In this document: positions 1,509 to 16,688 of the stretch, in pieces
Position numbering within the stretch: position 1 is the first letter of the stretch
Layout of the letters: every line of letters starts with the position of its first letter
NCBI GenBank assembly: GCA_020536535.1
Contig: JAHLWZ010000381.1
Location: 662 to 18,495 of the forward strand
DNA length: 17,834 nucleotides
Direction of reading: 5' to 3'
Origin: Pelomyxa schiedti
Taxonomy: Eukaryota; Protista; Evosea
Notes under the pieces: generated by a model
Databases searched by the model: none
What the model saw: only the letters and a program-made list of their open reading frames with translations
Told to the model about the DNA's origin: nothing
Translations under genes and position numbers: made by a program

Positions 1509-1553
1509 GTGCGAGTAATTTTACTTCTTATCATCCAAAACTGAGTGGCAAAG

Positions 1554-3173: not shown

Positions 3174-3308
3174 ATGGCAGCGAGTGAGAGGGGGGTGTTT
3201 AGCGACCACGTGTTTTTCCTTCTGGATCTTCCGGCTCCCAACAAAAAAAGTGTGACGCAAATCATACGAGACTATGGGGGAGAAGTCTCTTCGATGCCGT
3301 CAAAGATG
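3174..3308 (+). CDS. NACHT-TPR gene exon 1, the first half of the BRCT domain (MAASERGVFSDHVFFLLDLPAPNKKSVTQIIRDYGGEVSSMPSKM)
   Basis: ATG at 3174 and strong donor GTGAGT at 3309. Shows the BRCT pattern (hydrophobic core and the GG motif). Confidence 0.65.
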
Positions 3309-6300
3309 GTGAGTGAAACGTTTTGGATTTTGTAGTAAGTTTTGAGTCTGAGTTGATTTGTTTAGGTTACACATGTTGTGGTTAGGCCTGATGATTTGAG
3401 CAGTAATTCATTCAAAGTTCAAGCGATTCTCAAAAAGAACCCAGCAATGCAAGCTGTTCTCGAGACGTGGGTGCAAGATAAAACGAGAGGTGCCAGGAAG
3501 GTGGCACCAAAGCCAAAAGCTCCACCACCTCCACCTACACCTGCCTTTGTTCCACCAGAGGATGACACTATGTCCATGATCAGTGTCAGGACAACTTCGT
3601 CAGTGGCTTCTTCCGCGTCTGCTCTTGCACAAGTTGTTCCAGCGAAACCTGTCCCAGTACCTACTGTAACAATGGTCTTGCCAACTTCAGGTTTTTTGGG
3701 AAAATAAACTGTAACCCGACTTATGCTCCACAGGGCCAAATACTGGAGATTTCCGGCTTGCTCTTTTTGGTGTACACTTTAGACCAGGGCCAGGATTTAA
3801 GCTGAAAATAGGTTCCGTTACAGCAACGGAATACGAGTTCCATAGTAGCTCTTCTGTTATTGTAAATGTACCTCCTTGCACGTATGTTCCCTTCAATGCA
3901 ACAATAAGTCTGAAAGTCTTTAGGGTGCCTCCCGGAACTGTTCCTATACACGCCACAAATGACAATGGGCGCCACTATGGTTTTCCAATGGAGTTCCGTT
4001 TTTATGGTATTTTGTTAAAAAAAACCTATTCCTTCCTCACTAATGAATGAATAGATGCTGGTGCCGGCCAACTTTCCCAGTCAGTTGAACAAAAGGTTCT
4101 TGTGGGTGGTGAGTTCCTTCTACATTAACTTGCTGTCAGATTGCCATTCTCCGTGGGCAGCTTACAAACGTCCGAAGGGCCATTTCTAATATCCAACAAA
4201 CTGAAATCGATTTGAGGACGCAGCTTGCTCAACTCACTGATTTGAAACTATTGGAAGAGCTGGAACCCGAGGAGGTTGAATATATCTTTTGTGTGGAGAC
4301 TTTTTAAGGATTTTAGGTACCTCCTGAGCAAGCTGTGGCAGCTACAGAGAAACCGGCACCTCTTCGACATGAGGAGTTTGAGAGGGAAATTAGGATCTTC
4401 ATTTCCAGTCCATTCAGGGACATGAAGGAGGAGCGAGAGAAGATTGTGTGTTGCTTGTATTTCCTTGTCTCAATTTCCTTACGTTTAACACCATCTACCA
4501 TAGGTTAAACTTGTCATCCCCAAAGTACGCAAGTTATGTATGTCATTAGATGTTGCTGTCAGCTATGTAGATCTAAGATGGTACCTTTTTACTTCTTTAT
4601 TTTGTCTCACGTTTCTTTTTAGGGGTGTCACTGGGGCGCAAAGTGAGCAAGCCACTATGCTTTTGATGTGTCTAAGAGAAGTTGCCAAGTCAAATGTATT
4701 TGTGGGACTTTACGGGGAGCGTTACGGATGGGCAATTTCCAATGAGGGTGACACAAGTAACAACGACCTTCTAAGTCGCTCCTTTGATCTTGCTGCACGT
4801 GAATTCCCGTGGATTAACGAATACAGGGACAGAAGTGTTACTGAACTCGAGATGCGAATGGTACTGGTTTCTATACTGCTTTGCCATGTTCTGATCGTAA
4901 TCAGCTTCTTGGGCATAAATATGATGGTTCTAATAAACCTGCATGGTTCTATCTCCGTGATCCGTATTTCATCGAAGAAGTACCCAAAGAGCAAAGACAT
5001 CTCTTTGTGTCTGAAGGCCCAACTGCAAGTAGAAAGTTATCCACACTCAAGACAGATGTGCATAAAGCTGGACATCCTGTAAAGGACTACCTTCGAGCTG
5101 ATCAGATGGCCGAATTTATGTTTGAGGACTTAAAACAATATGTTGCTAAGAAGTATCCCGAGGTTGACCTACATTTTATCACTCTGAAATTGACCTGTTC
5201 CCAGGGTATGTCACTCAGTGACGAAGAACGTGAAGACCTCCGACATAAGCTCACTTCGCGAAACCTCACCCGTGTATACCTACCAAATGAAAGTAACTTC
5301 CTGGAACTTGACAAATTTGTCTCAAGTGAGAAGGAGTTACCTATGGTCATTGTTGGAGGGGTAGGGAGCAACAAATCCCTCTCCCACATTTAATATGCAC
5401 ATAGGGTGGCAGCGGCAAGTCTGCTTTGATGGCCAACTGGGTGATGAGACACAAGGTACTCAAATAATCATTTTCTCGTTAATATGATAAGGAGCACCAC
5501 CCCGAAGACGTAATTGCATTACACTATGTAGGCTGTTCGCCAGCATCAACGAATTATGCTTTCTTGCTTGGCAGGCTTATGCGGCTGGTACACGCCACTT
5601 TTACCACAGTGAAATTTACTCCATTAGATATCAGAACAACTTGGTGCCGCTGTCGATCTTCCATCTGATCAAAGCAAAACCCCTCTTGCATTTGTTACCT
5701 GGCTTTCCAACCTTTCAGTAGTAAATGTCAACAACCGCCGTATTGTGAGTTTTCTTCTCTTGCGCTTTTATCCAACTAAATTATTCAGATTGTGGTTATC
5801 GATGGTCTTAATAAGTTGGATGAACGAGATAATGCGCAAGAATTATTGTGGTTCCCTCAGTAAGCCAATATTGTCATCTTTATATGCGTTCTTAGTTTTC
5901 AAAAGAACTTTCCCGAGGTTCATGAGTGTCATAGTAACAACAGCTCCGATCCAAAGGATTGCGCATACCCTCAAAGTACCAAAGCCTTCCTTTGGTATTC
6001 AATTTACGCTTTGTAGAAACGCAACTGCCCAACAATGGACCTTGCTCTACTTGAGGAAGCAGAGCGCAAATCTTTTGTCCGAATGTACTTGAACCAGCGT
6101 GCAAAGAAGTTATCTGATCAGCAAGAATTTATGATTGCTTCCGCTGAGCAAACAGCTAATCCCAGGTTCGATTTATTTGGAGACTTAGACTTTTTTTTAT
6201 GCACTGTAGATTCTTACAGACACTCCTTGATGATATTGCAGTATTCGGGGAGCACGAAGCACTCGAAAAACGGATTAAGCAATGTCTTGCAGCGAAGAAC

Positions 6301-8904
6301 ACATCTAAGCTATATGAGCTTCTTCTCAACAGACTTGAATCGGACTATGACCCTGCAAAGAAGGGAATAGTGAAGCTATTCATGGCTTTAATTGGTGCAT
6401 CTAGACGTGGTCTCGATCTAGAAAACGAGGTTTCCGTATTGCTCGAGCAGAGTGGGATCACGCCTGATGAATGGTGCCCCTTTCCACTTCCGCTTTGTCT
6501 TCTGCCCTCTTACACTTGCCACTGCTAAACTTTTAATTACCAATTTAAGGTCCCCTCTGTTTGTAGTCATCGAGGAGCTTTTTATATCTATGAGAGGTAT
6601 ACTGAGCTTCGCAAACGAGGATATTGCTAAGGCTGCAAGATCTGTCTTCCTTTGGGATAAAACAATTAGAAACCAATTTCATCTTAAGATAGCAAATTTC
6701 TTCTCTGGTATACAAGGCTTTACAGAAAGAAAGGTTTCCATCCCAAAAAAAAAAAAAATCAAATTCCTAACTAAAACAAATCAAAAGCTTGAAGAGTTAC
6801 CTTACCAGTTGGAGATGGCCGAAGAATGGCCAAAATTAGTTGCTCTTCTCTGTGATGCAACTCTCTTTGATAAACTCTTCACACCTACAACCAAGTTTGA
6901 CCTGGTACATCTAGAGCCAAAATATTTTGTCTTATTTATGATCAATCCAGTTCCATTGGGTTCGACTGTGTGAAGGCAATGTGCCAGGATTTGATATTTG
7001 TGCCCCGTTTTTGGATAAAGTGTCTCGGAGTATATTCCCACCTGACCTTATCCCAGCTGATTTCTGTTATAAGTAAGTCATTACTGAAACATGACCCGCT
7101 AAAAAACATTACCCATAGGGTTGGCCGGTGCTTTGACGAAATGTCAAAGATTAAAGGAGCCGAGGTAATGTACCAAAAAGCTATTGAGTTATACTATGCC
7201 ACATCCATGCCTCTTGAAGTCGCCAAAGTCAAACGATACTTAGCACAGCTGTACCACATGACCAGCAGGTTTGTCATACCCACCTCGTTTGTTGGTCAAT
7301 TTTTGAAGGAGCGACAAAGCTGAAGCAATGCTGAAGGATCTCACTGAAATTTACGAAAAGGAGAAGGGTCCTGATGATATTGAGATAGCAACTACGTTAA
7401 ACAGTTTGGGAAGTCTATATGTTGACCTTTGCCAGTAAACTGTTCATGACAAGAAGTCAACTATTTACCTTTTTCACAGGGGACCAAGTGCACATCCTGT
7501 TCTAGAACGAGCTTTGCGAATATGTAAGTGACCTTTCCAGGCTTTCTAAGCGTTAAACTACAACAAGGCGAGGCACAAGTCGGTCCTGATCACAATATTA
7601 CTGCTGATATCGCTTATACTCTTGGTGCTTTATATCATTACGAGCGCGACTTACTTCCCAAAAATCTCGAAAAATCGGAAGAATTTCTCAAGGTACCTCT
7701 CCACTCACTAATACAAGTCTTACATGTGACTTAGCGAGCACTGAATATCAAAGAAAAGACATTTGGCTACTACCACCCAGATGTTGCGTGGGTGCTCAAT
7801 AAACTGGGGTGTGTGTACATGGAACAAGATCAGTATAATGATGCTGAAGAGTGCTTTACTGTATGTGGCACTCCTCATCGAGCCTCAGCACTAACTTCCC
7901 TTTAACAGATGGCACTAGAAATTCGAGAAATCTCCCTTGGACCAAAGCACGCTTCCGTAGCACAATCACTGGAAAATGTACTAACACTATTCGCCCTTCA
8001 GGAACGCTACACAACTGCCGAAGACTGTGGCAGAAGGTTGACTATAATAGTGCAATCAGTCCGCTAATGCTTATCTCTCTATAGAGCACTTGACATTCTC
8101 TCTGAAACCTTTGGAGAAAATAGCTTCCAAGTGAGCAGCATATTGCTTCGAGTGGGTGCCCTCATGTTTGTAATGGAGAAGAAACCTCAAGGGACACAAG
8201 ACCTGACTCGCGCAATTGCAATTCGCACAGCGCTTTTTGGACCAGGTCGGTGACGTGCTCTCCATTTGCTTTACTCAAACCCCCCGCCCCCGCCCTCTTC
8301 CAGATCATCCACACACAAAGGAGGCAAAGCTGACCCTGGAGGAGCTGGTGGCACCACCCAAGCCGGAACCGCCATCGATCAGGGAGCAGCCCAAGGCCCC
8401 ACCCCCGCCGCCACCCCCGCCTCCTCGCGCCTTCGTGGCCCCGCCGCCGCCACCCCCAACGCCCGGCGGTGCACCGGGCGGAATCCCGCCGCCCCCGCCG
8501 CCTCCACCTCCGCCGCCTCCCCCTCCTTCATCTGGAAAGCCGCCGCCCAAGACGAAGGTCACTGCTGCTGTGGCCCTGGAGAAGACTGAGAGTGTGTCGC
8601 TTGAGGATGCGATTCAGAAACAGACCGGGCTCCACCACGTCACGGAGGCGAATGATAGGTCCAGCGCCAGGTTGATAATCTCTCTTTCTTCACATATGTA
8701 TTCCTGCCACTTACGGATATTCACACTAGCCGGAATGCAGCAGCCATGGCTGGACTCAAGACCCGTAGGATGGTTGAAGTGAAGGGCAAAGCCAAAGCCC
8801 CCAGGTCCACACTGGCACAGTTCTTGCAAGCAAACAAGGCCACAACCCAGTTCACACAGCAACCAGTACTGGATGTCAAGCCGACGATGGACAAGAAGAG
8901 CTGA
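3174..8904 (+). CDS. span of a multi-exon gene (at least 20 exons) encoding BRCT, IPT/TIG-like, coiled-coil, DUF4062, NACHT NTPase, TPR array, polyproline and WH2-like domains. It is an NPHP3-like STAND protein.
   Basis: A continuous in-frame exon chain with 19 introns of 36-76 nt. The domain motifs were read from the translation. Stop TGA at 8902-8904 and AATAAA at 8907. Confidence 0.75.
3366..3690 (+). CDS. exon 2: the second half of the BRCT domain (VTHVVVRPDD...) plus a Pro/Ser-rich linker
   Basis: Acceptor TTGTTTAG at 3365 after a 57-nt intron. Open frame to the donor at 3691. Confidence 0.6.
3734..4006 (+). CDS. exon 3: IPT/TIG-like beta-sandwich domain (PNTGDFRLALFGVHFRPGPGFKLKIGSVTATEYEFHSSSSVIVNVPPCTYVPFNATISLKVF...FRFY)
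   Basis: A 91-codon open frame with no Met, so it is absent from the ORF track. It is bounded by a 43-nt intron (3691-3733) and donor GTATTT at 4007. It shows the IPT/TIG sequence pattern. Confidence 0.5.
4080..4108 (+). CDS. exon 4, a small exon (VQLNKRFLWV); the acceptor choice is uncertain
   Basis: This is the only phase-compatible connection between exon 3 and exon 5. Donor GTGAGT at 4109. Confidence 0.35.
4161..4274 (+). CDS. exon 5: coiled-coil segment (LTNVRRAISNIQQTEIDLRTQLAQLTDLKLLEELEPEE)
   Basis: Acceptor GTGGGCAG at 4160. Heptad-like composition. A 42-nt intron follows. Confidence 0.55.
4317..4445 (+). CDS. exon 6: the start of DUF4062 (…EFEREIRIFISSPFRDMKEEREKI)
   Basis: The IFISSPFRDM motif matches the NPHP3-type DUF4062 N-terminus VFISSTFRDM. 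Confidence 0.7.
4504..4580 (+). CDS. exon 7: DUF4062 (VKLVIPKVRKLCMSLDVAVSYVDLRW)
   Basis: A 58-nt intron upstream and a 42-nt intron downstream. VDLRWG is a conserved DUF4062 motif. Confidence 0.7.
4623..4860 (+). CDS. exon 8: DUF4062 core (GVTGAQSEQ...CLREV...FVGLYGERYGW...VTELEMRM)
   Basis: GERYGW and TELE are hallmark DUF4062/NPHP3 motifs. The exon is 79 codons plus a split Trp codon. Confidence 0.75.
4905..5360 (+). CDS. exon 9: the linker into the NACHT domain (…AWFYLRD…ELPMVIVGG)
   Basis: 152 codons in phase 0. Ends in the first half of the P-loop. Confidence 0.75.
5405..5455 (+). CDS. exon 10: NACHT Walker A (GGSGKSALMANWVMRHK), which completes GGGGSGKS
   Basis: A 44-nt intron upstream and a 36-nt intron downstream. 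Shows the GxxxxGKS P-loop. Confidence 0.8.
5492..5587 (+). CDS. exon 11 (EHHPEDVIALHYVGCSPASTNYAFLLGRLMRL)
   Basis: Aligns to the NPHP3-type segment after the P-loop. Donor GTACAC gives a 40-nt intron. The alternative 19-nt intron was rejected. Confidence 0.6.
5628..5744 (+). CDS. exon 12 (ISEQLGAAVDLPSDQSKTPLAFVTWLSNLSVVNVNNRRI)
   Basis: Strong donor GTGAGT at 5745. Confidence 0.6.
5789..5859 (+). CDS. exon 13: NACHT Walker B (IVVIDGLNKLDERDNAQELLWFP)
   Basis: Shows the hhhhDGLxxLDE pattern. Strong donor GTAAGC at 5860. Confidence 0.75.
5906..5975 (+). CDS. exon 14 (QTFPRFMSVIVTTAPIQRIAHTLK), the WLP..LP..VrvIvTtR-type NACHT motif
   Basis: A phase-2/1 junction across a 46-nt intron. A 41-nt intron follows. 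Confidence 0.6.
6017..6165 (+). CDS. exon 15 (KRNCPTMDLALLEEAERKSFVRMYLNQRAKKLSDQQEFMIASAEQTANP)
   Basis: In-frame chain. Resembles the NPHP3/NWD-type region ...SKPQSANPLYL. Confidence 0.6.
6210..6473 (+). CDS. exon 16 (RFLQTLLDDIAVFGEHEALEKRIKQCL...VLLEQSGITPDEW)
   Basis: A 44-nt intron upstream. Shows the conserved ...LLxELRVFGxxE-like motif. Confidence 0.6.
6550..6960 (+). CDS. exon 17 and possibly one more exon: the helical region leading into the TPR array (SPLFVVIEEL...KLEELPYQLEMAEEWPKLVALLCDATLFDKL...). The internal exon structure is not resolved. It contains an A13 tract encoding KKKK.
   Basis: A single long open frame. LPYQLxxAxxWxxL resembles the NPHP3/TEP1-type LPYHL..AGEW motif. 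Confidence 0.5.
7000..8245 (+). CDS. TPR array of kinesin-light-chain/NPHP3 type, with at least 6 TPRs over several exons. Examples: AIELYYATSMPLEVAKVKRYLAQLY; LKDLTEIYEKEKGPDDIEIATTLNSLGSLY; ALNIKEKTFGYYHPDVAWVLNKLGCVYMEQDQYNDAEECF; ALEIREISLGPKHASVAQSLENV; ALDILSETFGENSFQVSSILLRVGALMF. Exact exon boundaries were not derived.
   Basis: A repeating 34-aa pattern, A..L.NLA.LY...G.Y.EAE.L..RAL.I.EK..G..HP.VA, in successive short ORFs joined by GT..AG introns. Confidence 0.65.
8304..8670 (+). CDS. penultimate exon: polyproline tracts (PPPPPPPPP...PPPPPPPPPPPPPPP) followed by a verprolin/WIP-type WH2-like motif (SLEDAIQKQTGLHHVTEANDRS)
   Basis: Phase-1 junction from the last TPR exon (donor GTCGGT at 8246, a 58-nt intron). 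The Pro-rich, FH1-like tract and the ...L(K/H)(K/H)VxxxNDRS WH2 consensus are both present. Confidence 0.55.
8730..8904 (+). CDS. terminal exon (SRNAAAMAGLKTRRMVEVKGKAKAP...MDKKS*), with stop TGA at 8902-8904
   Basis: A 59-nt intron (8671-8729), an in-frame stop, then AATAAA. Confidence 0.5.
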
Positions 8905-8906
8905 GG

Positions 8907-8912
8907 AATAAA
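8907..8912 (+). promoter_or_regulatory. polyadenylation signal AATAAA, 3 nt after the stop of the NACHT-TPR gene. A second AATAAA lies at 8947-8952.
   Basis: Read directly. Confidence 0.6.
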
Positions 8913-9132
8913 ATGCCATGGATTGTATTGTGAGGATTAACTACCTAATAAACTCTTGTGTTGCAACCTCAATCCACATGAACAATTACCAAGTTCATTC
9001 TTCTCCACGAAAGTACTTCCTCAAGGGAAGTTCCCCAACAAAAAAAGCCAACCGCCCATTTTTGAGGTTTTTTCCTGCTACGAAAGTCTTCGCGTTGTTA
9101 ACAGATTTAATTTGATCGAATTCTGCCCGATC

Positions 9133-9267
9133 ATGGCGTCAACGGGCGGGTGCTGCGTGCTGCTGTGCGTGGGTAGTGTGGACACAAAAAAGAAGGCAAG
9201 GAGTCAACTGCGTGAGTGTGTCAACAAAGTGAAAGGCTTCACCACAAGTTTCGTCTTCGGCCCAAAG
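9133..9267 (+). CDS. PARP4: PARP4-like gene exon 1, the first half of the BRCT domain (MASTGGCCVLLCVGSVDTKKKARSQLRECVNKVKGFTTSFVFGPK)
   Basis: ATG at 9133. Aligns to the PARP4 N-terminal BRCT (…KKKLQTDIKENGGKFSFSLNPQC) recalled from memory. Donor GTCCGT at 9268. Confidence 0.65.
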
Positions 9268-9280
9268 GTCCGTGCGTGCT

Positions 9281-9347
9281 TTGGTTGTGTTTTTTTTTGG
9301 TTTTTTTGTTTTGTTTTTTGTGTTTTGGTTTTTTGCTTTTGGTTGTC
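9281..9347. repeat. imperfect (GTTTT/GTTTTTT)n T/G-rich microsatellite inside intron 1 of the PARP4-like gene
   Basis: Read directly. It belongs to the same motif family as the repeat at 344-411. Confidence 0.85.
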
Positions 9348-9394
9348 TGTGATCATGTTAATTTTTTTTTCTCTTGGTTGTGTGGACTGCACAG

Positions 9395-9487
9395 GTGACA
9401 CACGTAGTCGTTGACGATGTCGGCTGGAGGATATTTTCTATTTCTCCAAGGAAGATTGACTTGATAAAGAGATTGCGGATACACGTG
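9395..9487 (+). CDS. PARP4: PARP4-like exon 2, the second half of the BRCT domain (VTHVVVDDVGWRIFSISPRKIDLIKRLRIHV)
   Basis: Acceptor CTGCACAG at 9394 after a 127-nt intron. Strong donor GTGAGT at 9488. Aligns to THIILDNADVLSQYQLNSIQKNHVHI. Confidence 0.65.
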
Positions 9488-9556
9488 GTGAGTTGGATGT
9501 TTGAAATTTCCGGAATCTTGTTAGCCACCTTTTTTTTACGACTCTATTTGAATTAG

Positions 9557-9850
9557 GTTACACCTGCCTTTTTAGATGCCTGTACATCAAATAGCAGAAT
9601 TATGGAATGCTCAGATTTTGTGTATAATACTGTGAAGGAGGTTGTACTGAGCACAGAACCTCAGATATACTTGCCACCACAAGAACCAGACCCTGTACCT
9701 CCTGCGCCTGCTGCCTCCAGGGATACTTATATTCGAAGGGAAGTCATTGTTCCCTACAAATCCAAAGATGACCCTTTTAATGAAGCGGGTGCCTGGCTCG
9801 TTCAACACCATCTACTGCAAAAGCCATCATGGTTAGATCATTTTCGTTTC
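9557..9850 (+). CDS. PARP4: PARP4-like exon 3, 3' end approximate (…MECSDFVYNTVKEVVLSTEPQIYLPPQEPDPVPPAPAAS…)
   Basis: Acceptor TGAATTAG at 9556 with a 69-nt intron. Aligns to PDFIWKSIREKRLLDVKNYDPYKPLDITPPPDQ. Confidence 0.5.
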
Positions 9851-9882
9851 TAAGTATCCCTCTTTTCTAATTCGTTTCTAGC

Positions 9883-10191
9883 TTGGTGAAACTAGAATTG
9901 CATACCCGCAGCTCTTCTGATAATGCTTGGCGTGTGTATGAAGAAGTTGTGCCATGCCTTTCCACTGTGCCACCACAGACAAATACTCAGGGGAAATCAA
10001 AAAAGACCATCTCCCAACCAACACACAGGAGGCTGAGCCATCTCTTAGCCTCGGCCTCAGAGGCTATTTCTGTGTACTCCGCTCTCTATGAGAATTATAC
10101 CAACGTTGAAGGCTACACCCGCGTTGGAATACCTCCGTTTTCTTCCTTGGGATCAGATTTGGTATATGCTTCTCCAACGTTCTTTTTTTAA
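9883..10191 (+). CDS. PARP4: PARP4-like coding segment, exon boundaries not derived (…SEAISVYSALYENYTNVEGYTRV…)
   Basis: Aligns to the PARP4 segment SEDASEYFENYIEELKKQGF, recalled from memory. Confidence 0.35.
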   Translation: MVKLELHTRSSSDNAWRVYEEVVPCLSTVPPQTNTQGKSKKTISQPTHRRLSHLLASASEAISVYSALYENYTNVEGYTRVGIPPFSSLGSDLVYASPTFFF

Positions 10192-10711
10192 CTATTAAAA
10201 GATAGGTAATGGATTAAGTCCCGGGTCTGTTCTTCCTGCAATGATATCACAGCTTGTGCAAGTCATTTTTAACGGTCAGTGATGATAGAACTCTGTTTTC
10301 GAATAACATTTTTCAGCTTCATCTTCTAAGTTTGCTGGCTTGAATACTATGACACTGGATATATCATTAGACACTCTAAATGAGGCAGAGGCTATTCTAT
10401 GGTCCCTGCAAGAGCTTAGCCTTTCCAATCAACAAGGCTCTCCGAAATTCATTGAGGTATGGCACTTGAACTCGATCTTTCTCTGTGTAAATTATTTTAA
10501 CAGCTAAATGATAAACTTTCCTCGTTGCTCCCATTTAGTGATCAGCACATAACCTCAAATGAAGCATTGCTTGAGAAATATGAGTTCATCCAAACTCTAA
10601 AAGATTCTCTTTGCCTGAATGAAGGTACCCACTAAACGTGCATATTTAAGCTAATTTTCACCAGGGATCACACTTCCAGGCAGTTCTGTACAGTCCAACT
10701 CCATCATAGAT

Positions 10712-10960
10712 ATGCATTACCGCAGTCTCAATTGTCGTTTGGAATATACAGATGATCCTGCTGTGAGAGAGCTAACTTCCCGTGTCCAAGCCTCTCTAAC
10801 ATCAGCCCCTACCTTGCTACACGTGGAACATGTGTTTCATGTTGCGCGCCCTTCGGAAAATGAAGTCTTTTCTAATGTGGGTAATGTGAAACTTCTATTT
10901 CACGGTACCAAAGTGGAGCGGGTAGCTGGTATTCTTTCACATGGACTGGTTTTACCAAAG
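10712..10960 (+). CDS. PARP4: PARP catalytic domain, part 1 (…NVKLLFHGTKVERVAGILSHGLVLPK), with the donor-loop His-Gly-Thr motif. The 5' boundary is approximate.
   Basis: LLFHGTxxxxxxxILSxGL matches the PARP signature LLWHGSRxxNxxGILSQGL. Donor GTTTCC at 10961. Confidence 0.65.
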
Positions 10961-11096
10961 GTTTCCCTCAAAGCAATTCGATCTATTTTCTCAGTGCCTT
11001 AGGTTTCTGTAACTAAACTTGGAATCAAGAGAGTGGATGCTGGCCAACTTGGGGTGCACATTTGTTTCGTTTAGTTTCGTTTTACATGCCCTACAG

Positions 11097-11285
11097 AATG
11101 GTATATACTTTGCAACAGATGCCGCTGTAAGTGCTAAATACTGTAACTCTTTTGGGGAAACGTCGTTCCTATTGGTGGCTTCAGTTTCCTTAGGCAAATC
11201 TATGGATACACCAGCTCCACGAGTAGGAACCACTGCCGACACTTTACCCAACGGGTATCTGGAAATTCGAAGGGAATTTATTCTC
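11097..11285 (+). CDS. PARP4: PARP catalytic domain, part 2 (NGIYFATDAAVSAKYCNSFGETSFLLVASVSLGKSMD…). The 3' boundary is approximate.
   Basis: Acceptor CCTACAG at 11096. GIYFAxxxSKSxxYC is the PARP signature. Ser sits at the position of the catalytic Glu (LLVASVSLG against LLLGEVALG). Confidence 0.65.
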
Positions 11286-11309
11286 TAATATGTTTCTTCA
11301 GATTCCACA

Positions 11310-11810
11310 GTGTGCACTCCATCCCGAGGCATACCGACCCCAACTCGGCCTTCGAGGATGAGGAATTCTGTGTACCTCTCCCAATTTGTGAAACTGCATC
11401 ATGACCACCGACAGGTATTTGATAGCCGACAAATAATCCTGGAATACATTATCCAACTTACAAAAGCCCCTAAATCAATACCATCAACACTACCAATGCC
11501 GTCTTTTCCACAAGTTTCAATCTCTGATCCAACCACCGCCCCAGACGATCTGAAGTCTATTTTTCTTGCACCACCTTCTCTCAGCGTTTCACCCACGAAA
11601 AAGCAATCTCCTGTATACCCGGTTTTGATTGGTCAAGGCGGAGTACGTTTTTCAGTTGAAAGTACAACTGTGGCAGCCAGAATACTTGATTTAGTGGCTG
11701 AAGTTGTAGTTATTCAACATTTTAGCAATACTGGCGTTGTAGCTTGTGAAGCGAAGTATATATGCCCAATAGATAGCCATGGTTGTATATCTGCCCCCAC
11801 AATACTCTAA
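11310..11810 (+). CDS. PARP4: VIT (vault protein inter-alpha-trypsin) domain region (…VYPVLIGQGGVRFSVESTTVAARILDLVAEVVVIQHFSNTGVVACEAKYICPIDSHGCISA…). Exon boundaries were not derived.
   Basis: Aligns to PARP4 VPLEDVHIKGRIIDTVAQVIVFQTYTNKSHVPIEAKYIFPLDDKAAVCGF, recalled from memory. Confidence 0.5.
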   Translation: MCTPSRGIPTPTRPSRMRNSVYLSQFVKLHHDHRQVFDSRQIILEYIIQLTKAPKSIPSTLPMPSFPQVSISDPTTAPDDLKSIFLAPPSLSVSPTKKQSPVYPVLIGQGGVRFSVESTTVAARILDLVAEVVVIQHFSNTGVVACEAKYICPIDSHGCISAPTIL

Positions 11811-12377
11811 CCTCTCCTAGCTGCTGTTTGTGCTTTCGAATGTTACATAAATGACAAGCATGTAGTGGCACACATAGAAGAAAAAGGTCTTTTTCTTTTT
11901 TTATTGTGCCAATTGAAACAATGTCAAATATTAGGTAAGGCTCGAAAAGAATACAAAGAAGGTACACGTTTGTGCTTGACTTTTTTGTAACTTATAAGAA
12001 TACAGCAATTGAGCAAGGGCATGGAGCGTAGGTAAGCCAGATTCCTTCTACTTCTTTACCTCTATTAGGTATTTACTCGAAGAAGAATCCCCAGATGCAT
12101 GGTGCATGTCTCTTGGAAATCTTCCAGGCATATCTTGCCATGATGTTCTTACTTCCTCTTATTCTTCAAAGCAAACGCCGAAATTGTTGTTAAAATTACA
12201 TATGTGGAAGACCTGGCTTTAGCATCTAATGGGGTAAGTCCGTCAAAAGTAGTGAAATTTGTGTCTAATCAACAATACTCAGATTACCTTTACCTTACCT
12301 GCGGCTCTTGCCGGCCGTGAGGACCGTCTCAATAGTGTAACAACAACCCAAACGGCAGTTGCAACAGTTATCAAAGT

Positions 12378-12662
12378 ATGCTCCAAACAACTAGGGTAGG
12401 TATCTCATTTAGTCAGGCTCATTCCAGCGCGCCGTCATTCCATTTGGAAGCGGGAATTACTATGCCCTATGACATCACTGGCATCACTTCACCATCTCAT
12501 TTGAAAGATGTTCAAGTGAAACACACCAACACAAAGGCAACTGTCAGGGCTTTAATGACGGAACTTACAGCAGACTTTGTACTACTTATTTCTATCAAGA
12601 ACGCCCATGAACCCCGAATGTGGTTGGAAGTAAAGGACTCATCTCTACTGCTTTTTACTTAA
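12378..12662 (+). CDS. PARP4: VIT C-terminal region (…ITMPYDITGI…ALMTELTADFVLLISIKNAHEPRMWLEVKDSS…). Exon boundaries were not derived.
   Basis: Aligns to PARP4 SIEMPYVIEFIF…GFSLHIGLSAAYLPRMWVEKHPE, recalled from memory. Confidence 0.5.
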   Translation: MLQTTRVGISFSQAHSSAPSFHLEAGITMPYDITGITSPSHLKDVQVKHTNTKATVRALMTELTADFVLLISIKNAHEPRMWLEVKDSSLLLFT

Positions 12663-12671
12663 CACTTTCAG

Positions 12672-13148
12672 GTGGATGATACACAAAACTGGGCAGCGAT
12701 GATTTCTATATCCCCAGATTTTCAAAATTATATACAGTCTGCCTGTCAGAGCAGATCTGAGGTCATATTCGTGGTTGACAGGTCCATAAGCATGGCCTCC
12801 AATCTTGCAACTTTACGTTGGGCTCTTCAGGTAATCAGATGGATGATTTTGCACTCTCACGAAACTCAGATACTCATATCCCAACTGGGAAGTGAGGATA
12901 TGTTTAATGTAGTTGGATTTGGATCCCACTTTGAGTCGTTATTTGTACAGTCGCAATCTGCAACTTCCGCCAAACCTGTCGGGTACAGATATGCCCAAAT
13001 GTTACAAGCCACCTTTGGGGGTACTTCCCGTCACCATACCTCCCTCCCCAAGCTTAATCACCTTTTTCAACAGGCACAAATCTTTACTCTGTTCTCAGAG
13101 CAGTGTTTTCTCTTGGTCAATCCAATGACTTCTCTTCAAGAACAGTAA
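12672..13148 (+). CDS. PARP4: von Willebrand factor A (VWA) domain with the MIDAS motif DRSIS (…SEVIFVVDRSISMASNLATLRWALQV…DMFNVVGFGSHFESLF…MLQATFGGT…). Exon boundaries are approximate.
   Basis: Shows the VWA pattern hhhhhDxSxSM....hh......FnhhxFgs........A..Ggt. Confidence 0.6.
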   Translation: MDDTQNWAAMISISPDFQNYIQSACQSRSEVIFVVDRSISMASNLATLRWALQVIRWMILHSHETQILISQLGSEDMFNVVGFGSHFESLFVQSQSATSAKPVGYRYAQMLQATFGGTSRHHTSLPKLNHLFQQAQIFTLFSEQCFLLVNPMTSLQEQ

Positions 13149-13678
13149 TCCTTCTCACTGATGGCCTTTTTGACATTTTTCCCGTATTGCCCATAGTGAA
13201 AAGGTGGAGAGACTCCTTGTATCTCAGTATTAAATCTGTTTAGTGCCCGGGCTCACACCAAACTATTTACTGTTGGAATCGGGGAGGCATCCAGGCATTC
13301 TATTTGCACCCTTGCACGGATAGGTGGGGGATGCTGTCAGTTCGTTCCATCCAATCCCTCACCCAAACATGAGAAACTGTTGAATCACATGTTAGCACAA
13401 CGAAATCAAAATGTGGCTTCCCTAAATTTGGAACATTCTTATACTGTTTTAGACTTTATCTGGTATAAACATCAAGTGGCACACAACACACACAATTAAG
13501 CAAGTACCCTCTGAAATTTACAATATGTTTCAGAATCAGGTTTTCCTCCAAGACTAGTTTTCCTTTTTCTAACACATTAAAGTCTTATACTATTTATGGT
13601 CTCCTTAGTGGCATATGTAACCAGGTGTCAATTCAGGGGAATATCGGAGCACAGTTTTACCCTCACCCAATAAATTAG

Positions 13679-13874
13679 TGGTAATCGAGAGCAGGGAGTT
13701 TTCCACAACAGTGTCATCAAGTGAACTTACTGCTACACATGGCACATTGATTCACAAACTGGCAGCCAGAGAGCTTATTCGAGATTGGGGGGAAAATTCT
13801 CTCCACGAACAGGATACAGAGCACTTTGTACAAAAAAATAATATGGTTTCAGATGTTATTGCTCTAAGTAAAAA
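13679..13874 (+). CDS. PARP4: PARP4-like exon (…TTVSSSELTATHGTLIHKLAARELIRDWGENSLHEQDTEHFVQKNNMVSDVIALSKK). The acceptor is approximate.
   Basis: Aligns to PARP4 TTELQKTTGTMIHKLAARALIRDYEDGILHENE, recalled from memory. Donor GTATGG at 13875. Confidence 0.55.
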
Positions 13875-13928
13875 GTATGGATATCAAAATACAAAAATGG
13901 AGTTAGGATAGTAATATACTACAAAAAG

Positions 13929-14025
13929 GTATGGCTTCATCACTCCTTTTACTTCTTTTGTGGCAGTGGAAGAGAGAAACCGTAATGACGCCTTAGTTTT
14001 GAAAGCACCTTCAGTGAAAGAGATT
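13929..14025 (+). CDS. PARP4: PARP4-like exon (YGFITPFTSFVAVEERNRNDALVLKAPSVKEI)
   Basis: A 54-nt intron (13875-13928). FTSFVAVE matches PARP4 FTSFVAVEKRDE, recalled from memory. GTA at a codon boundary (14026) gives a phase-0 donor. Confidence 0.55.
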
Positions 14026-14068
14026 GTATCAGAGTCTAAATTTTTGTACTTCCTTTGACTGCCAACAG

Positions 14069-14251
14069 CTGCAAGGCCATGACGTCGATGAAATCAAAGA
14101 AATTGCTTGGGAGCATGACCTTGAACCAGTCCCAAAGAAGGACGAACTTCAGAAACAACGAGATTCAAATTCCTTTTCCATTGCTCTTTATGGTGACCCA
14201 CAGACTGGTATAAAAACTCACCCACACTTTTACCTCCTAAGACATCTCAAG
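14069..14251 (+). CDS. exon entering the Ran-like domain (LQGHDVDEIKEIAWEHDLEPVPKKDELQKQRDSNSFSIALYGDPQTGIKTHPHFYLLRHLK). There is no in-frame ATG, so it is probably a continuation of the PARP4-like ORF through a 43-nt intron (14026-14068).
   Basis: FSIALYGDPQTGIKT-HPHFYLLRHL aligns to Ran [21 protein letters not shown]. The P-loop carries a one-residue insertion that displaces the Lys. Donor GTAAAA at 14252. Confidence 0.65.
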
Positions 14252-14324
14252 GTAAAACAGCTTGGCTAAAACGCATGGTTTTTCCTTCAAATTTGCAACC
14301 CAATCCCCATTTATACAACTACAG

Positions 14325-14660
14325 CTGAGCGGGGAGTTTGAGCACAAATACATTGTAACCCAGGAGCCAGAGCAATTCAAACTGACTCTAAGTACAAATC
14401 GAGGTGCTATCCACTTTAATTTGTACGACATGCCTGGTGTAGCTACCAGCACAGCAACCCCTCCTACTGCCCATGATGGTAGTATAGTCTTCTTTGACGT
14501 TACTTCTCGCGCGTCATATAAAAATCTGCCCATCTGGTACATGAAGGCTGGAAGCACTTCCGGTTCACCTACAAGTCCAGTTGTTGTATTTGTTGGCAAT
14601 AAAGTGGACTGCTCAGAACGGAAACTTCATGCTCGACAAATTGTCTTTCATAAGAAAAAG
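14325..14660 (+). CDS. Ran-like GTPase domain core (LSGEFEHKYIVTQ…RGAIHFNLYDMPGVATSTATPPTAHDGSIVFFDVTSRASYKNLPIWY…VVVFVGNKVDCSERKLHARQIVFHKKK)
   Basis: Collinear with Ran [39 protein letters not shown]…[22 protein letters not shown]…[26 protein letters not shown]. The G4 motif NKVD is conserved. G3 DTAGQ is replaced by DMPGV. Confidence 0.75.
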
Positions 14661-14705
14661 GTATTGGCTCTCCTTTCTCAAGTGTCTTCCTGATTGCCAA
14701 TTTAG

Positions 14706-14728
14706 AATTGCAAGTACTATGACCTAAG
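14706..14728 (+). CDS. 23-nt micro-exon (NCKYYDL), matching Ran NLQYYDIS
   Basis: Flanked by 45-nt and 44-nt introns (donors GTATTG and GTACCT). Confidence 0.6.
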
Positions 14729-14772
14729 GTACCTCCTTTTATGATATCCACTCTTAAGTATTTACTCTTTAG

Positions 14773-14832
14773 TGTTAAATCTTCGTACAACCTGGAGTCA
14801 CCTCTACTAAGTCTTGCCCGGTCCCTTTTATG
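14773..14832 (+). CDS. Ran-like exon (SVKSSYNLESPLLSLARSLL + C), matching Ran [21 protein letters not shown]
   Basis: The G5 motif SAK is retained as SVK. A 40-nt intron (14833-14872) restores the frame into the next exon. Confidence 0.55.
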
Positions 14833-14872
14833 GTTGTGCACAATCCTTCTCCCTGAATTTAATTCTTCTCAG

Positions 14873-16297
14873 TGACCCACAATTGGAGTTTGTTCAAGAA
14901 GTGGCACTTGCTCCACCTGAAGTAACTTTGGATCAGGCATTAATAAAGAGGTGGGAACAGGATTTAGCTGATGCAGCATCAATCCCCCTTCCCGATGAGG
15001 ATGATGACTTTGGAGGCACTGTTCCATCCAGTGCTGTCGCTCCTCAGCATGCAGTGCCGTCCAGTACCTTTGATTTCGCTCTCCGACCAAGCAAAGAAAA
15101 AAGTGCACCAGGTCCAACAGGCTTTTTCAGTCAATCTGCTACAGTTCCATCTGTGCAAGCTTCTGTTACCCATTCAGTACCATCTCTTTTTAGCTCTCCA
15201 GTTGCACCTTCCTTTAATTTCGCTTCACAAGCCACTACCTCTCGAGGGTTATTTTCTCCCCAAGGACAAGTGACGTCAACTCAACCTTCTCCTCTATTTG
15301 GCGCACCTCTGCCCTCCTATACTCCACCGGCCCCGTCACCTTTTGGTAGTTCTTCATCATTGTTTTCTGGCAGTTCGTTTGGATCTCAACCACAACCTTC
15401 TACCGCTGCATTTGGCACTGCAAGCACTTCTTCACTTTTTGGCGGATCCCAACAGGTACCTGCCTCGAGTGGGGGCGCTGTGAGTGCGTTTGGAGCTCTA
15501 GCATCTCCTACTTCCGTTTTTCCACAGGCATCATTTGGCATGGCAAGCCCTGCAATGTCCACTACAATCCCTGCAGCCACTTGTTGTCTGCCGTCCATCT
15601 TTCCTGCAGCCAGTTCTACTACTTCCACTCTCTTTTCTGCACCACAAATATTTCCCTCGGCCGCATCTTCCACAGCACAGTTGTTCCCAGCGCCTCAATT
15701 GTCCTCTTTCCCAACATTCAGTCTACCGGCCACTCCTGCAGCCAGTTGTACGTCCACCTTCAGTCTACAGGCCTTTCCTGCAGCCAGTTCTACTACTTCC
15801 ACTCTCTTTTCTACACCACAAGTATTTTCCTCTGCACCAACTTCCGTAACGGCGTTGCCGCCGGCGCAGCAATTACCGTCTTCCGCCACTTTTGCTCCAC
15901 CCACTACTCCACAGCTCAGGTCTCCACATCCTGGGACTGGAACAATTTCATTTGCAGCTGCCAGAGCGCGAAGCAAGGCATTTCAAAATAGGAAACACTC
16001 TGAATCAGATATTAGTAATACAAGCAAGTCTTCAATTGACCCTCCCTTGCCTCCGTTCTGCTGCCGTGCTTGTTGCAGCCCCTCCACACTCAGTGATTCC
16101 CAATTGCAGTTTGTACTTAAGGGACCTAAGAATACGAAGAGGATCTGGGGTGTGTGCTGGATGGATGCCGTTCTTGCATTAGCATCAACCTTGTCACCTT
16201 TACGTGACTGGGCATGTTGTACTAGGAACGGAGAACCTCCTATTGGCTATGCTGGCAGCTTACTTGAGTGTATCACATCATTTTTCCGCTGTTGGAT
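14873..16297 (+). CDS. Ran C-terminal tail (DPQLEFVQEVALAPPEV…LADAASIPLPDEDDD) that continues, with no stop, into a roughly 470-aa FG/SLFG/AFG-repeat low-complexity region (nucleoporin-like). It ends at TAA 16299-16301, or splices at the GTAAGT donor at 16298.
   Basis: A 495-codon open frame. DPQLEFV..ALAPPEV…PDEDDD matches the Ran C-terminus DPNLEFVAMPALAPPEV…LPDEDDDL. Many xFG, SLFG and FGxxS repeats follow. Confidence 0.65.
15568..15915. repeat. in-frame tandem duplication of about 174 bp inside the FG-like region, with unit starts CCTGCAGCCA… at 15568, 15603, 15736 and 15777
   Basis: Read directly. TTTCCTGCAGCCAGTTCTACTACTTCCACTCTCTTTTCT recurs at 15597 and 15771. The protein repeats are FPAASSTTSTLFSAPQIF and FPAASSTTSTLFSTPQVF. 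Confidence 0.7.
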
Positions 16298-16338
16298 GTA
16301 AGTAATTCATCAACCTATCAATGTTTCAACCCCTTAAG

Positions 16339-16688
16339 ATCTGAGGACGTAGGAAGTGTAACTTACAATAAGTATCTGAATACGACACACAAACGCACAG
16401 CAAGCAAATTTTCCGATCTCGGATTCGCCGAAGGAAAGCCACAGTGCGTTGTCAAGGCACTCAATTGCTTGATTGAGGAAGCTTCACTATTTATTACAGA
16501 GGTAGGTAGAACATTCATGCTTTCCCTTACAAGCATGACTGTACAGGTACGAGACATTATTACTGTGCCCTCCACAAATCTTGGGGAGATCCTCACACGT
16601 AAATTGGAACAAATAATTCCGCAAATAATCACAATTTCAGAGTTTACTGTTGCAAGTGCACCTCCAAAGTGGATCATATGTATAAATA
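16339..16688 (+). CDS. tentative continuation exon after a 41-nt intron (ISEDVGSVTYNKYLNTTHKRTASKFSDLGFAEGKPQCVVKALNCLIEEASLFITE…WIICIN). The product is unknown, possibly the C-terminal globular domain of the PARP4-like protein.
   Basis: In-frame with the FG exon through GTAAGT 16298 and AG 16338. Open for 116 codons. Long ORFs on both strands overlap here. Confidence 0.3.

Follow-up and report, generated by a model that had tools for sequence, protein, structure and literature searches.

The window analyzed here, a 17,834-nt stretch of DNA, is nuclear DNA of Pelomyxa schiedti, an anaerobic free-living amoeba of the Archamoebae, and its architecture is already known in kind, that of a compact, intron-rich genome that has been sequenced and annotated. 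According to Zahonova et al. 2022 (PMC8887013), this genome comprises 52.4 Mb and 19,876 genes at a GC content of 46.5%, with 148,348 annotated introns (7.46 per gene) bounded by GT-AG (98.4%) or GC-AG (1.6%), and was annotated by Augustus, refined by PASA/EVM, with transcriptome evidence used genome-wide. Three plus-strand genes concern us in the window, an eIF2alpha-like, an NPHP3-like, and a PARP4-like gene, and the gaps separating the modelled coding regions are about 0.2-0.9 kb. The intron statistics given below cover 67 introns in two genes of this one 18-kb window: 64 come from our own models (29 NPHP3-like and 35 PARP4-like), and three more are found only in GenBank.

The PARP4-like gene corresponds to the P. 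schiedti protein KAH3763470.1, which was retrieved when one exon served as query in an exhaustive HMMER search and maps onto the window over 2087/2087 residues with 100% identity. It was not among the results of word-index protein searches, in which the best matches reached 46%, 31%, and 30% identity. An exact 40-mer from the window had no match in the metagenome, GTDB, and IMG/VR collections; exact look-up returned nothing for a small minus-strand protein or for the contig of P0024, and Rfam and tRNA scans of the window gave no matches.

Genes and introns of the window

Removal of 29 GT-AG introns from 3174-8904 leaves an unbroken ORF of 1455 codons for the NPHP3-like gene, and exact look-up of two versions of this NACHT model found no identical published protein.

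3174..8904, +, NPHP3-like gene, BRCT-TIG-DUF4062-NACHT-TPR, 30 exons, 1455 aa; ORF, Pfam, homologues
3309..3365, +, intron 1, 57 nt, GTGAGT; ORF, unique in frame
3691..3733, +, intron 2, 43 nt, GTTTTT; ORF, single alternative of 58 nt
3882..3923, +, intron 3, 42 nt, GTATGT; P0005 alignment; 3n, no stop, retention possible
4007..4054, +, intron 4, 48 nt, GTATTT; P0005 alignment
4096..4139, +, intron 5, 44 nt, GTTCTT; ORF, ambiguous (plausible 38-65 nt, all in-frame up to 104 nt)
4275..4316, +, intron 6, 42 nt, GTTGAA; ORF, ambiguous (plausible 36-54 nt, all in-frame 24-123 nt)
4446..4503, +, intron 7, 58 nt, GTGTGT; 3 homologues concordant
4581..4622, +, intron 8, 42 nt, GTACCT; 3 homologues concordant
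4861..4904, +, intron 9, 44 nt, GTACTG; 4 homologues concordant
5163..5204, +, intron 10, 42 nt, GTTGAC; 4 homologues concordant
5361..5404, +, intron 11, 44 nt, GTAGGG; 4 homologues concordant
5456..5491, +, intron 12, 36 nt (shortest), GTACTC; 4 homologues concordant
5588..5627, +, intron 13, 40 nt, GTACAC; 4 homologues concordant
5745..5788, +, intron 14, 44 nt, GTGAGT; 4 homologues concordant
5860..5905, +, intron 15, 46 nt, GTAAGC; 4 homologues concordant
5976..6016, +, intron 16, 41 nt, GTACCA; 3 homologues concordant
6166..6209, +, intron 17, 44 nt, GTTCGA; 3 homologues concordant
6474..6549, +, intron 18, 76 nt, GTGCCC; 2 homologues concordant
6734..6787, +, intron 19, 54 nt, GTTTCC; P0003 alignment
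6905..6950, +, intron 20, 46 nt, GTACAT; ORF, unique
7073..7118, +, intron 21, 46 nt, GTAAGT; ORF, unique among alternatives of at least 25 nt; one 22-nt GC-AG alternative
7269..7308, +, intron 22, 40 nt, GTTTGT; ORF, ambiguous sites
7435..7479, +, intron 23, 45 nt, GTAAAC; ORF, TPR register
7524..7567, +, intron 24, 44 nt, GTAAGT; ORF, TPR register
7693..7734, +, intron 25, 42 nt, GTACCT; ORF, unique
7861..7908, +, intron 26, 48 nt, GTATGT; KLC-type TPR alignment
8037..8084, +, intron 27, 48 nt, GTTGAC; KLC-type TPR alignment
8246..8303, +, intron 28, 58 nt, GTCGGT; KLC-type TPR alignment
8671..8729, +, intron 29, 59 nt, GTTGAT; ORF, ambiguous sites

For the PARP4-like gene, our own model removes 35 GT/GC-AG introns from 9133-17310 and yields an ORF of 2177 codons. 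The DNA is the same as that of the published genome, and the 38 introns of the GenBank model contain all 35 derived here at identical sites (35/35); the other three, introns 35, 37, and 38, are absent from our model. The Augustus/PASA/EVM annotation recovered this gene with every micro-exon included.

9133..17206, +, PARP4-like gene (KAH3763470.1), BRCT-PARP-VIT-vWA-Ran-like-FG-rich-C-terminal Cys/His region, 39 exons, 2087 aa; GenBank, Pfam, PDB
9268..9394, +, intron 1, 127 nt, GTCCGT; GenBank, own model; T/G-rich repeats 9280-9344 (TRF)
9488..9556, +, intron 2, 69 nt, GTGAGT; GenBank, own model
9832..9881, +, intron 3, 50 nt, GTTAGA; GenBank, own model
10162..10201, +, intron 4, 40 nt, GTATAT; GenBank, own model
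10275..10316, +, intron 5, 42 nt, GTCAGT; GenBank, own model
10457..10503, +, intron 6, 47 nt, GTATGG; GenBank, own model
10625..10664, +, intron 7, 40 nt, GTACCC; GenBank, own model
10961..11002, +, intron 8, 42 nt, GTTTCC; GenBank; P0009 and P0012 spliced alignments; PARP4 structure
11003..11053, +, 51-nt exon VSVTKLGIKRVDAGQLG, aligned to PARP4 VVEDRGVQRTDVGNLG; PARP4 alignment, homologues, GenBank
11054..11096, +, intron 9, 43 nt, GTGCAC; homologues, PARP4 structure, GenBank
11255..11301, +, intron 10, 47 nt, GTATCT; spliced alignment, GenBank
11372..11414, +, intron 11, 43 nt, GTACCT; spliced alignment, GenBank
11782..11820, +, intron 12, 39 nt, GTTGTA; 4 homologues, GenBank
11887..11934, +, intron 13, 48 nt, GTCTTT; 4 homologues, GenBank
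11935..11961, +, 27-nt micro-exon (GKARKEYKE); spliced alignment, GenBank
11962..12005, +, intron 14, 44 nt, GTACAC; 4 homologues, GenBank
12006..12027, +, 22-nt micro-exon (AIEQGHG); spliced alignment, GenBank
12028..12068, +, intron 15, 41 nt, GTAGGT; 4 homologues, GenBank
12128..12171, +, intron 16, 44 nt, GCATAT, sole GC-AG; 4 homologues despite GC penalty, GenBank
12234..12282, +, intron 17, 49 nt, GTAAGT; spliced alignment, GenBank
12376..12416, +, intron 18, 41 nt, GTATGC; P0010, GenBank
12630..12671, +, intron 19, 42 nt, GTAAAG; 4 homologues, GenBank
12831..12869, +, intron 20, 39 nt, GTAATC; 4 homologues, GenBank
13021..13073, +, intron 21, 53 nt, GTACTT; 4 homologues, GenBank
13204..13243, +, intron 22, 40 nt, GTGGAG; P0015, GenBank
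13413..13452, +, intron 23, 40 nt, GTGGCT; spliced alignment, GenBank
13540..13582, +, intron 24, 43 nt, GTTTTC; P0009, GenBank
13654..13694, +, intron 25, 41 nt, GTTTTA; spliced alignment, GenBank
13875..13928, +, intron 26, 54 nt, GTATGG, downstream exon also begins GTATGG; spliced alignment, GenBank
14026..14068, +, intron 27, 43 nt, GTATCA; ORF, GenBank
14208..14251, +, intron 28, 44 nt, GTATAA; Ran alignment, GenBank
14252..14277, +, 26-nt micro-exon (GKTAWLKRM), completing the P-loop; Ran alignment, GenBank
14278..14324, +, intron 29, 47 nt, GTTTTT; Ran alignment, GenBank
14661..14705, +, intron 30, 45 nt, GTATTG; Ran alignment, GenBank
14706..14728, +, 23-nt micro-exon (NCKYYDLS); Ran alignment, GenBank
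14729..14772, +, intron 31, 44 nt, GTACCT; Ran alignment, GenBank
14833..14872, +, intron 32, 40 nt, GTTGTG; Ran alignment, GenBank
16298..16338, +, intron 33, 41 nt, GTAAGT; ORF, GenBank
16502..16546, +, intron 34, 45 nt, GTAGGT; ORF, GenBank; 3n, stop-free
16599..16640, +, intron 35, 42 nt, GTAAAT; GenBank only
16710..16756, +, intron 36, 47 nt, GTACCA; ORF, GenBank
16913..16972, +, intron 37, 60 nt, GTCTGT; GenBank only
17050..17113, +, intron 38, 64 nt, GTGAGC; GenBank only

The eIF2alpha-like gene lies outside 3309-16338, and its models allow either 878-901 or 946-975 as an exon in the middle part (834-1107) and stop short of the last exon and the stop codon. Its protein looks divergent, with Gly in place of Ser51 and a best database match of 30%.

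161..1700 (end approximate), +, eIF2alpha-like gene
344-448, +, intron, 105 nt, GGTTTT x11; own model
524-589, +, intron, 66 nt; own model
714-753, +, intron, 40 nt; own model
1221-1263, +, intron, 43 nt; own model
1364-1406, +, intron, 43 nt; own model
1515-1553, +, intron, 39 nt; own model

Intron placement and revised gene models

Ab initio dynamic programmes were tried and abandoned: with codon log-odds alone they under-spliced (13 introns of 57-379 nt), with a coding bonus they read through in-frame introns, and with small-sample, over-fitted site matrices they over-spliced (44 and 74 introns). Homology-guided spliced alignment was therefore adopted, using an aligner run against several intronless homologues with an intron penalty that is length-neutral over 20-600 nt. 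Since the penalty is neutral in this way and the same sites were obtained from several homologues, intron placement is free of any assumption of short length. Thirteen NACHT-gene introns were placed identically with one to four homologues (two or more for 12 of the introns), and about 20 PARP-gene introns were likewise placed consistently. The exact sites of about five NACHT-gene introns are ambiguous, and all in-frame alternatives within 18 nt on either side measure 25-91 nt; the one exception is PARP4-like intron 1 (127 nt), whose alternatives span 121-148 nt.

That the first programmes erred in both directions could lend some credit to the idea that the length band is a product of model building, the shortest ORF-keeping GT..AG segments having been picked where the true introns are longer and fewer. 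Nevertheless, the length-neutral alignment still gave 36-76 nt throughout the conserved cores, the exons between the tiny introns align residue by residue to Ran, PARP4, VIT-vWA, and DUF4062-NACHT proteins, and the same 35 sites occur in an independent published model. Such an artefact is very improbable overall, and for conserved regions it is already refuted.

The spliced products gave full-length Pfam domains, namely VIT (2-111/111), PARP (9-197/199), Ras (3-160/162), VWA_3 (2-155/155), and NACHT (2-165/167). End-to-end alignments with solved structures in the PDB (Ran, E 1e-54; PARP4, E 2e-31) continue across the micro-exons, and intron removal leaves the catalytic and nucleotide-binding motifs intact. 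Under the standard genetic code, no internal stop occurs in about 3600 codons of the two spliced genes.

These models mend several mis-readings of practical consequence in the earlier note, which had worked from the letters and open reading frames. The segment 10961-11096, previously taken for a single 136-nt intron between the halves of the PARP catalytic domain, is in fact 42 nt and 43 nt of intron around a 51-nt PARP exon (11003-11053), and the intron of about 73 nt placed before LSGEFEHKY in the Ran-like region likewise resolves into 44 nt, a 26-nt exon carrying P-loop residues (14252-14277), and 47 nt. A proposed 52-nt intron at 12376-12427 is out of frame, the true one being 41 nt. The Ran-like part is no separate gene, as had been proposed, and is instead a domain at residues ~1250-1460 of the PARP4-like protein. 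As for the micro-exons, the one at 14706 stands, at 23 nt, while that at 1264 in the eIF2alpha-like gene is doubtful, since 1287-1337 is probably coding. Among the three introns said to exceed 100 nt, those of 105 and 127 nt are kept, together with the microsatellites recognized in these first introns, GGTTTT x11 in the former and T/G-rich repeats in the latter; the 136-nt one drops out, and each ORF-preserving model of the eIF2alpha-like gene adds one or two others beyond the 105-nt intron (132 nt, 112 and 132 nt, or 206 nt).

Length band, splice signals, and recognition

The ultra-short band described before is borne out: 66 of the 67 introns measure 36-76 nt and the remaining one 127 nt, with a median of 44 nt, an interquartile range of 42-48 nt, 50 introns at 40-48 nt, and a floor near 36-39 nt. 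Intron density in our 64-intron models is 5.9 per kb of coding sequence, so that, together with the published 7.46 introns per gene, the compact-genome signature of a small-genome protist suspected earlier fits P. schiedti. Introns begin with GT in 66 cases and GC in one, and all 67 end in AG; the GC-AG share of 1/67 (1.5%) agrees with the genome-wide 1.6% of PMC8887013.

Donors are as degenerate as had been noted, with GTRAGT in just 7 of the 67, A at +3 in 55%, G at +5 in 37%, no conservation at +4 and +5, a weak T at +6 (34/67), and 1.74 bits of information over positions -3 to +6 outside the GT. For 52 of the 64 introns of our own models, no better donor is available in frame. Acceptors read yAG, with G never at -3. 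The intron interior is rich in T (37%) and poor in G (16%), and its GC content is 37% vs 46% in exons. A occurs at -11 in 35 of the 67 introns (intron A frequency 0.26, p = 5e-6), and T at -13 also in 35. A position-free Gibbs search yielded no branch-point motif that outscored those from shuffled introns (LLR 195.8 vs 194.2 +- 2.5), and the putative branch point therefore draws its support from a single positional enrichment.

Could the interruptions be non-spliceosomal, either segments removed by ciliate-type DNA elimination or the frameshifts and insertions of pseudogenes undergoing decay? Like the sequences eliminated in ciliates, they are short and have a higher AT content than their flanks, and the neighbouring eIF2alpha-like gene seems divergent in its Ser51 position and low best match. 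However, each of the 67 opens with GT or GC and closes with AG, where ciliate-type segments would run TA...TA, the roughly 3600 codons need no reassigned stops and hold no internal ones, the catalytic and nucleotide-binding motifs are whole once the segments are removed, and the host is an amoebozoan with 148,348 annotated introns. We regard this origin as next to impossible. Minor-class (U12-type) introns, defined by an RTATCCTT donor and a TCCTTAAC branch site, were rejected as well, as neither signal is present: no donor among the 67 fits [AG]TATCCT, and TCCTTAAY occurs nowhere in the window. For P. schiedti as a whole, 90 U12-type introns have been reported (PMC10639083).

The earlier note had also pointed to a duplicated GTATGG at 13875 and 13929. 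The repeat is present; its length is what chance would give, the longest in-register boundary repeat beyond AG/GT being 7 nt (P = 0.32 against permuted donor-acceptor pairs), and the repeat was discarded as a mark of intron gain by tandem duplication or an introner.

Judged from sequence, the interruptions are most probably ordinary U2-type (major) spliceosomal introns of the compact and very intron-rich P. schiedti nuclear genome, a reading to which we assign a probability of roughly 0.93. Introns this short would be recognized by intron definition, across the intron instead of the exons, from a 5' site that may offer little beyond G/GTa and a 3' site of yAG, and a weak T-N-A signal may mark the probable branch-point A some 11 nt before the AG. 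Length itself, confined to a narrow band, probably serves as an extra recognition cue, and the band could have arisen from deletion pressure halted at the minimum spacing between 5' site and branch point that the spliceosome tolerates. In established comparative studies, intron-rich genomes have weak 5' sites.

The introns might also be real, with many of them undergoing inefficient or alternative splicing. Weak sites would then reflect noise that is tolerated and cleared through nonsense-mediated decay, the situation proposed for Paramecium, instead of accurate recognition. The low site information (1.7 bits outside GT) is compatible with this, and a leave-one-out model of sites and composition, which told introns apart from 681 GT..AG decoys taken from exons (AUC 0.98), still passed 44 decoys at 95% sensitivity, so that these score level with the weakest 5% of real introns. 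Furthermore, 40 of the 64 introns in our own models carry a stop in the frame of the upstream exon, and most retained forms would thus be targets of nonsense-mediated decay. Against it, the Paramecium-type deficit is not seen in this small sample: length residues 0, 1, and 2 modulo 3 number 24, 21, and 22 of the 67, so that 3n introns are not depleted, and 7 of the 22 3n introns in our own models lack an in-frame stop. If any of these seven (e.g., 3882-3923 and 16502-16546) were retained, the ORF would not reveal it, as they are 3n in length and stop-free. Widespread noisy splicing is unlikely, while keeping an appreciable share of our credence.

Comparison with other genomes and significance

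The tiny introns of Paramecium (~25 nt) have reportedly, in work by Jaillon et al. in 2008, been shaped by nonsense-mediated decay, and the hallmark of that genome is a deficit of 3n introns without stops. The introns of the window resemble them in a very narrow length range near the physical minimum and in a presumed recognition by intron definition, and differ in showing no deficit of stop-free 3n introns (in a small sample), in being nearly twice as long, and in the standard code. In the tunicate Oikopleura dioica, Denoeud et al. are said to have described in 2010 an intron peak near 47 nt with ~12% non-GT-AG boundaries. The Pelomyxa window shares a near-equal modal length and densely packed genes, whereas its non-canonical boundaries are rare (1 GC-AG in 67).

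Ultra-short introns, with medians of 22-27 nt, are also known from parasitic animals, the myxozoans and Dicyema japonicum (Hadjez et al. 2026, PMC13644364), in which the 5' signal has shrunk from agGTaagt to GTa and the 3' signal is reduced too. The Pelomyxa donor is similarly close to GTa, and its weak T at +6 resembles that of Kudoa (PMC13644364). Unlike these animals, Pelomyxa is a free-living amoebozoan with a median of 44 nt, no intron below 36 nt, and a y kept at -3. Closer relatives within the Archamoebae, sharing equal proportions of boundary types, have longer introns, averaging 137 bp in Mastigamoeba balamuthi (3.4 introns per gene) and 74-104 bp in Entamoeba (1.3-1.5 per gene) (PMC8136499), and the window median lies well under these means. 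The published intron density of Pelomyxa is about twice that of Mastigamoeba.

If the pattern of the window holds genome-wide, P. schiedti would, with slightly better than even odds, be a free-living amoebozoan that combines near-top protist intron density, a median of ~44 nt (relatives' means 74-137 bp), and a 5' site of G/GTa. The comparative study PMC13644364 highlights a reduced 5' site just for parasitic animals, the myxozoans and dicyemids, and the searchable literature does not state this combination of extremes for P. schiedti. Should it be true, Pelomyxa would offer a non-parasitic system for how a spliceosome finds ~148,000 introns with almost no 5' sequence information; given an unchanged U1 snRNA 5' end, ACUUACCU, pairing would be limited to 2-5 bases at most sites.

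As a discovery, this carries little weight, as the genome is published, GenBank already contains the larger gene's introns, and short, weak-site introns are expected in a compact genome. The searchable text and supplement of PMC8887013, where Table S1 covers intron number, density, and boundary types, contain neither intron lengths nor splice-site logos; the DNA being the same, the length band and weak 5' site therefore add description to objects that were already known. For practical purposes, gene modelling in P. schiedti must permit exons of 22-27 nt and introns of 36-48 nt.

Gene models and intron placement

The window is gene-dense eukaryotic nuclear DNA (17.8 kb, ~43% GC) with three plus-strand genes.

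Features of the window
161 to about 1700, plus strand: eIF2alpha-like gene
1947-2237, minus strand: small ORF
3174-8904, plus strand: BRCT-TIG-DUF4062-NACHT-TPR (NPHP3-like) gene, here the NACHT gene
start 9133, plus strand: very large PARP4-like gene
17696: start of a further gene

Ab initio dynamic programming was dropped as unreliable with so little training data, and protein-to-DNA spliced alignment was therefore adopted, using BLOSUM62, GT/GC-AG introns and a single fixed penalty for any length from 20 to 600 nt, so that shortness was not presupposed in placement. Four intronless DUF4062-NACHT proteins of prokaryotic or metagenomic origin (31-46% identity) supported 13 introns of 36-76 nt between 4446 and 6787, 12 at identical sites with two to four homologues and one with a single homologue. 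Two further NACHT-gene introns were placed by a TIG-bearing homologue, about 20 between 10625 and 13928 by VIT-vWA and PARP homologues, five between 14208 and 14872 by Ran sequence, and three between 7861 and 8303 by KLC-type TPR sequence; the others were set by the open-frame requirement after every in-frame alternative had been listed.

Removal of 29 introns from the NACHT gene and 35 from the PARP4-like gene left ORFs of 1455 and 2177 codons, respectively, without internal stops. The spliced proteins gave full-length Pfam matches to VIT (2-111/111), PARP (9-197/199), Ras (3-160/162), VWA_3 (2-155/155) and NACHT (2-165/167), with additional matches to BRCT, TIG, DUF4062, TPR_12 and TPR_NPHP3. 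Residues 10-215 of solved Ran aligned to the Ran-like part (E 1e-54), and the best solved match of the catalytic part was PARP4 (E 2e-31).

An exhaustive HMMER search found GenBank protein KAH3763470.1 of Pelomyxa schiedti (2087 residues, encoded on a 99-kb contig), 100% identical over all 474 residues to the 1.4-kb exon 14874-16295. A word-index search with a 694-residue query had missed this protein, so that negatives from index searches need caution. Mapped back by the spliced aligner, KAH3763470.1 aligned over 2087/2087 residues without gaps and with 38 introns; all 35 PARP4-like introns derived here coincided exactly with its coordinates, and three more (42, 60 and 64 nt) lay near the 3′ end. 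For the PARP4-like gene, the GenBank model is an independent confirmation of the intron sites. The genome paper on this archamoeba (Zahonova et al. 2022, PMC8887013) describes an Augustus annotation refined with PASA/EVM and a transcriptome, 52.4 Mb at 46.5% GC, 19,876 genes, 148,348 introns (7.46 per gene), and 98.4% GT-AG and 1.6% GC-AG boundaries. The window agrees: one of 67 introns is GC-AG, and the 64-intron models have 5.9 introns for every kb that codes for protein. The earlier note had correctly read a compact-genome signature.

Intron lengths and splice signals

The narrow band of tiny introns described earlier was borne out and is more uniform than first read. All but one of the 67 introns measure 36-76 nt, the exception being 127 nt long (median 44, IQR 42-48); 50 lie within 40-48 nt and 63 do not exceed 60 nt. 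Two longer introns dissolved on alignment: the supposed 136-nt intron between the PARP catalytic halves is actually 10961-11002 (42 nt) and 11054-11096 (43 nt), around a 51-nt exon encoding the segment corresponding to PARP4 VVEDRGVQRTDVGNLG, and one of ~73 nt within the Ran-like part splits into two of 44 and 47 nt, flanking a 26-nt exon that completes the P-loop GDPQTG-KTAWLKRM. The 23-nt micro-exon at 14706 was confirmed, and others of 27 nt (11935) and 22 nt (12006) were found. The Ran-like part, previously taken for a separate gene, lacks its own start codon and lies within the PARP4-like gene in both our model and that of GenBank.

Donors are as loose as the earlier note had claimed: 66 are GT and one GC, only seven fit GTRAGT, and, apart from GT, the information content of positions -3 to +6 adds up to 1.74 bits (G at -1 69%, A at +3 55%, G at +5 only 37%, T at +6 51%). 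This weakness is not a placement error, since 52 of 64 introns have no more consensus-like in-frame donor within 18 nt. Acceptors are yAG (at -3: C 29, T 26, A 12, G 0), with weak pyrimidine bias. Enrichment of A at -11 (35/67 introns, p = 5e-6), with T at -13/-14, suggests a putative branch point near the 3′ site; a position-free branch-motif search did no better than on shuffled sequence. The GTATGG repeat at 13875 and 13929 is present but at chance level: 32% of random donor-acceptor pairings give in-register boundary repeats as long, helped by the AG|GT preference.

The introns are T-rich and G-poor (GC 37% vs 46% in exons). The Paramecium-type NMD signature is absent from them, because the length classes modulo three are near even (24, 21 and 22) and 7 of 22 introns divisible by three in the 64-intron models contain no in-frame stop. 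A leave-one-out model built on sites and composition reached an AUC of 0.98 in telling the introns apart from 681 exonic GT..AG decoys; since 44 decoys pass at 95% sensitivity, recognition probably draws on further cues as well, for instance length.

Recognition and comparison with other genomes

From this observed anatomy we infer how the introns might work. Recognition would proceed across the intron, given that introns are so short and exons so small, and the sharp length floor near 36-39 nt, together with a putative branch 11 nt from the 3′ site, would imply a minimum spacing of ~25 nt between 5′ site and branch point. Irimia, Penny and Roy in 2007 and Schwartz et al. in 2008 reportedly found intron number and splice-site strength to be inversely related; a genome as rich in introns as this one fits that established relation in having weak 5′ sites.

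The 5′ motif is likewise cut to GTa in myxozoans and Dicyema, whose median introns are shorter (22-27 nt vs 44 here; Hadjez et al. 2026, PMC13644364), and in the relatives Mastigamoeba and Entamoeba the mean intron sizes, 137 and 74-104 bp (PMC8136499), are well above the median found here. In the literature that could be searched, neither the length of P. schiedti introns nor the strength of its splice sites is stated. The feature is real; the genome is published and annotated, and this class of genome architecture is well known.

Other features of the genes

The eIF2alpha-like gene lies outside the interval to which the short-intron claim applied. A first intron of 105 nt carrying (GGTTTT)11 is plausible in it; every ORF-preserving model built adds one or two introns >100 nt (132; 112 + 132; or 206 nt). 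The proposed micro-exon at 1264 is doubtful, as the stretch 1287-1337 can be aligned, as coding sequence, with human eIF2alpha. The neighbouring exons 878-901 (24 nt) and 946-975 (30 nt), both divisible by three, resemble the same eIF2alpha segment (VYSILRHVAE), and could be mutually exclusive, or one may be spurious. With Gly in place of regulatory Ser51 (ISESGRRRFRS vs LSELSRRRIRS), a 50-residue N-terminal extension and a best database match of 30% identity, the protein looks like a divergent paralogue beyond control of eIF2alpha kinases. A perfect 17-nt tandem repeat, ACACTTGGGCAGTCCCA x2 (102-136), 25 nt upstream of the start codon, may be a promoter or 5′-UTR element. Tail to tail with this gene lies the minus-strand ORF (96 codons, intronless), with two E..G.LGG-type repeats and neither a Pfam match nor an exact database entry.

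Low-complexity tracts of (CAAAA)n/(GTTTT)n type (2460-2640, 3100-3160, 9280-9344) occur repeatedly upstream of start codons and inside both >100-nt first introns. The window's sole GC-rich stretch is a proline-rich tract of the NACHT-TPR protein, in its C-terminal part (8385-8530; PPPPPPPP runs, GC >55%), and just upstream lies the sole GC-rich intron (8246-8303, 62%). A BRCT domain opens both the NACHT (3174-3383) and PARP4-like (9133-9412) genes, in each interrupted by a phase-0 first intron directly before an identical VTHVVV; this matching phase and hexapeptide point to an N-terminal module that the two share or that was duplicated.

Residues ~1250-2087 of the PARP4-like protein (gene 9133-17206) comprise three more regions with no intervening stop or new start codon. 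The first is a Ran-derived GTPase domain with the P-loop GDPQTGKT, which may be catalytically impaired because DMPGVA replaces DTAGQE in switch II; the second is FG/LF-rich low complexity of ~400 residues, and the C-terminal third carries Cys- and His-box-like motifs without a Pfam match. A Logan/ENA protein (P0025, 275 aa, 40% identity) spans the matching Ran-tail/FG/Cys-box junction, which may mean that the fusion is conserved in a relative.
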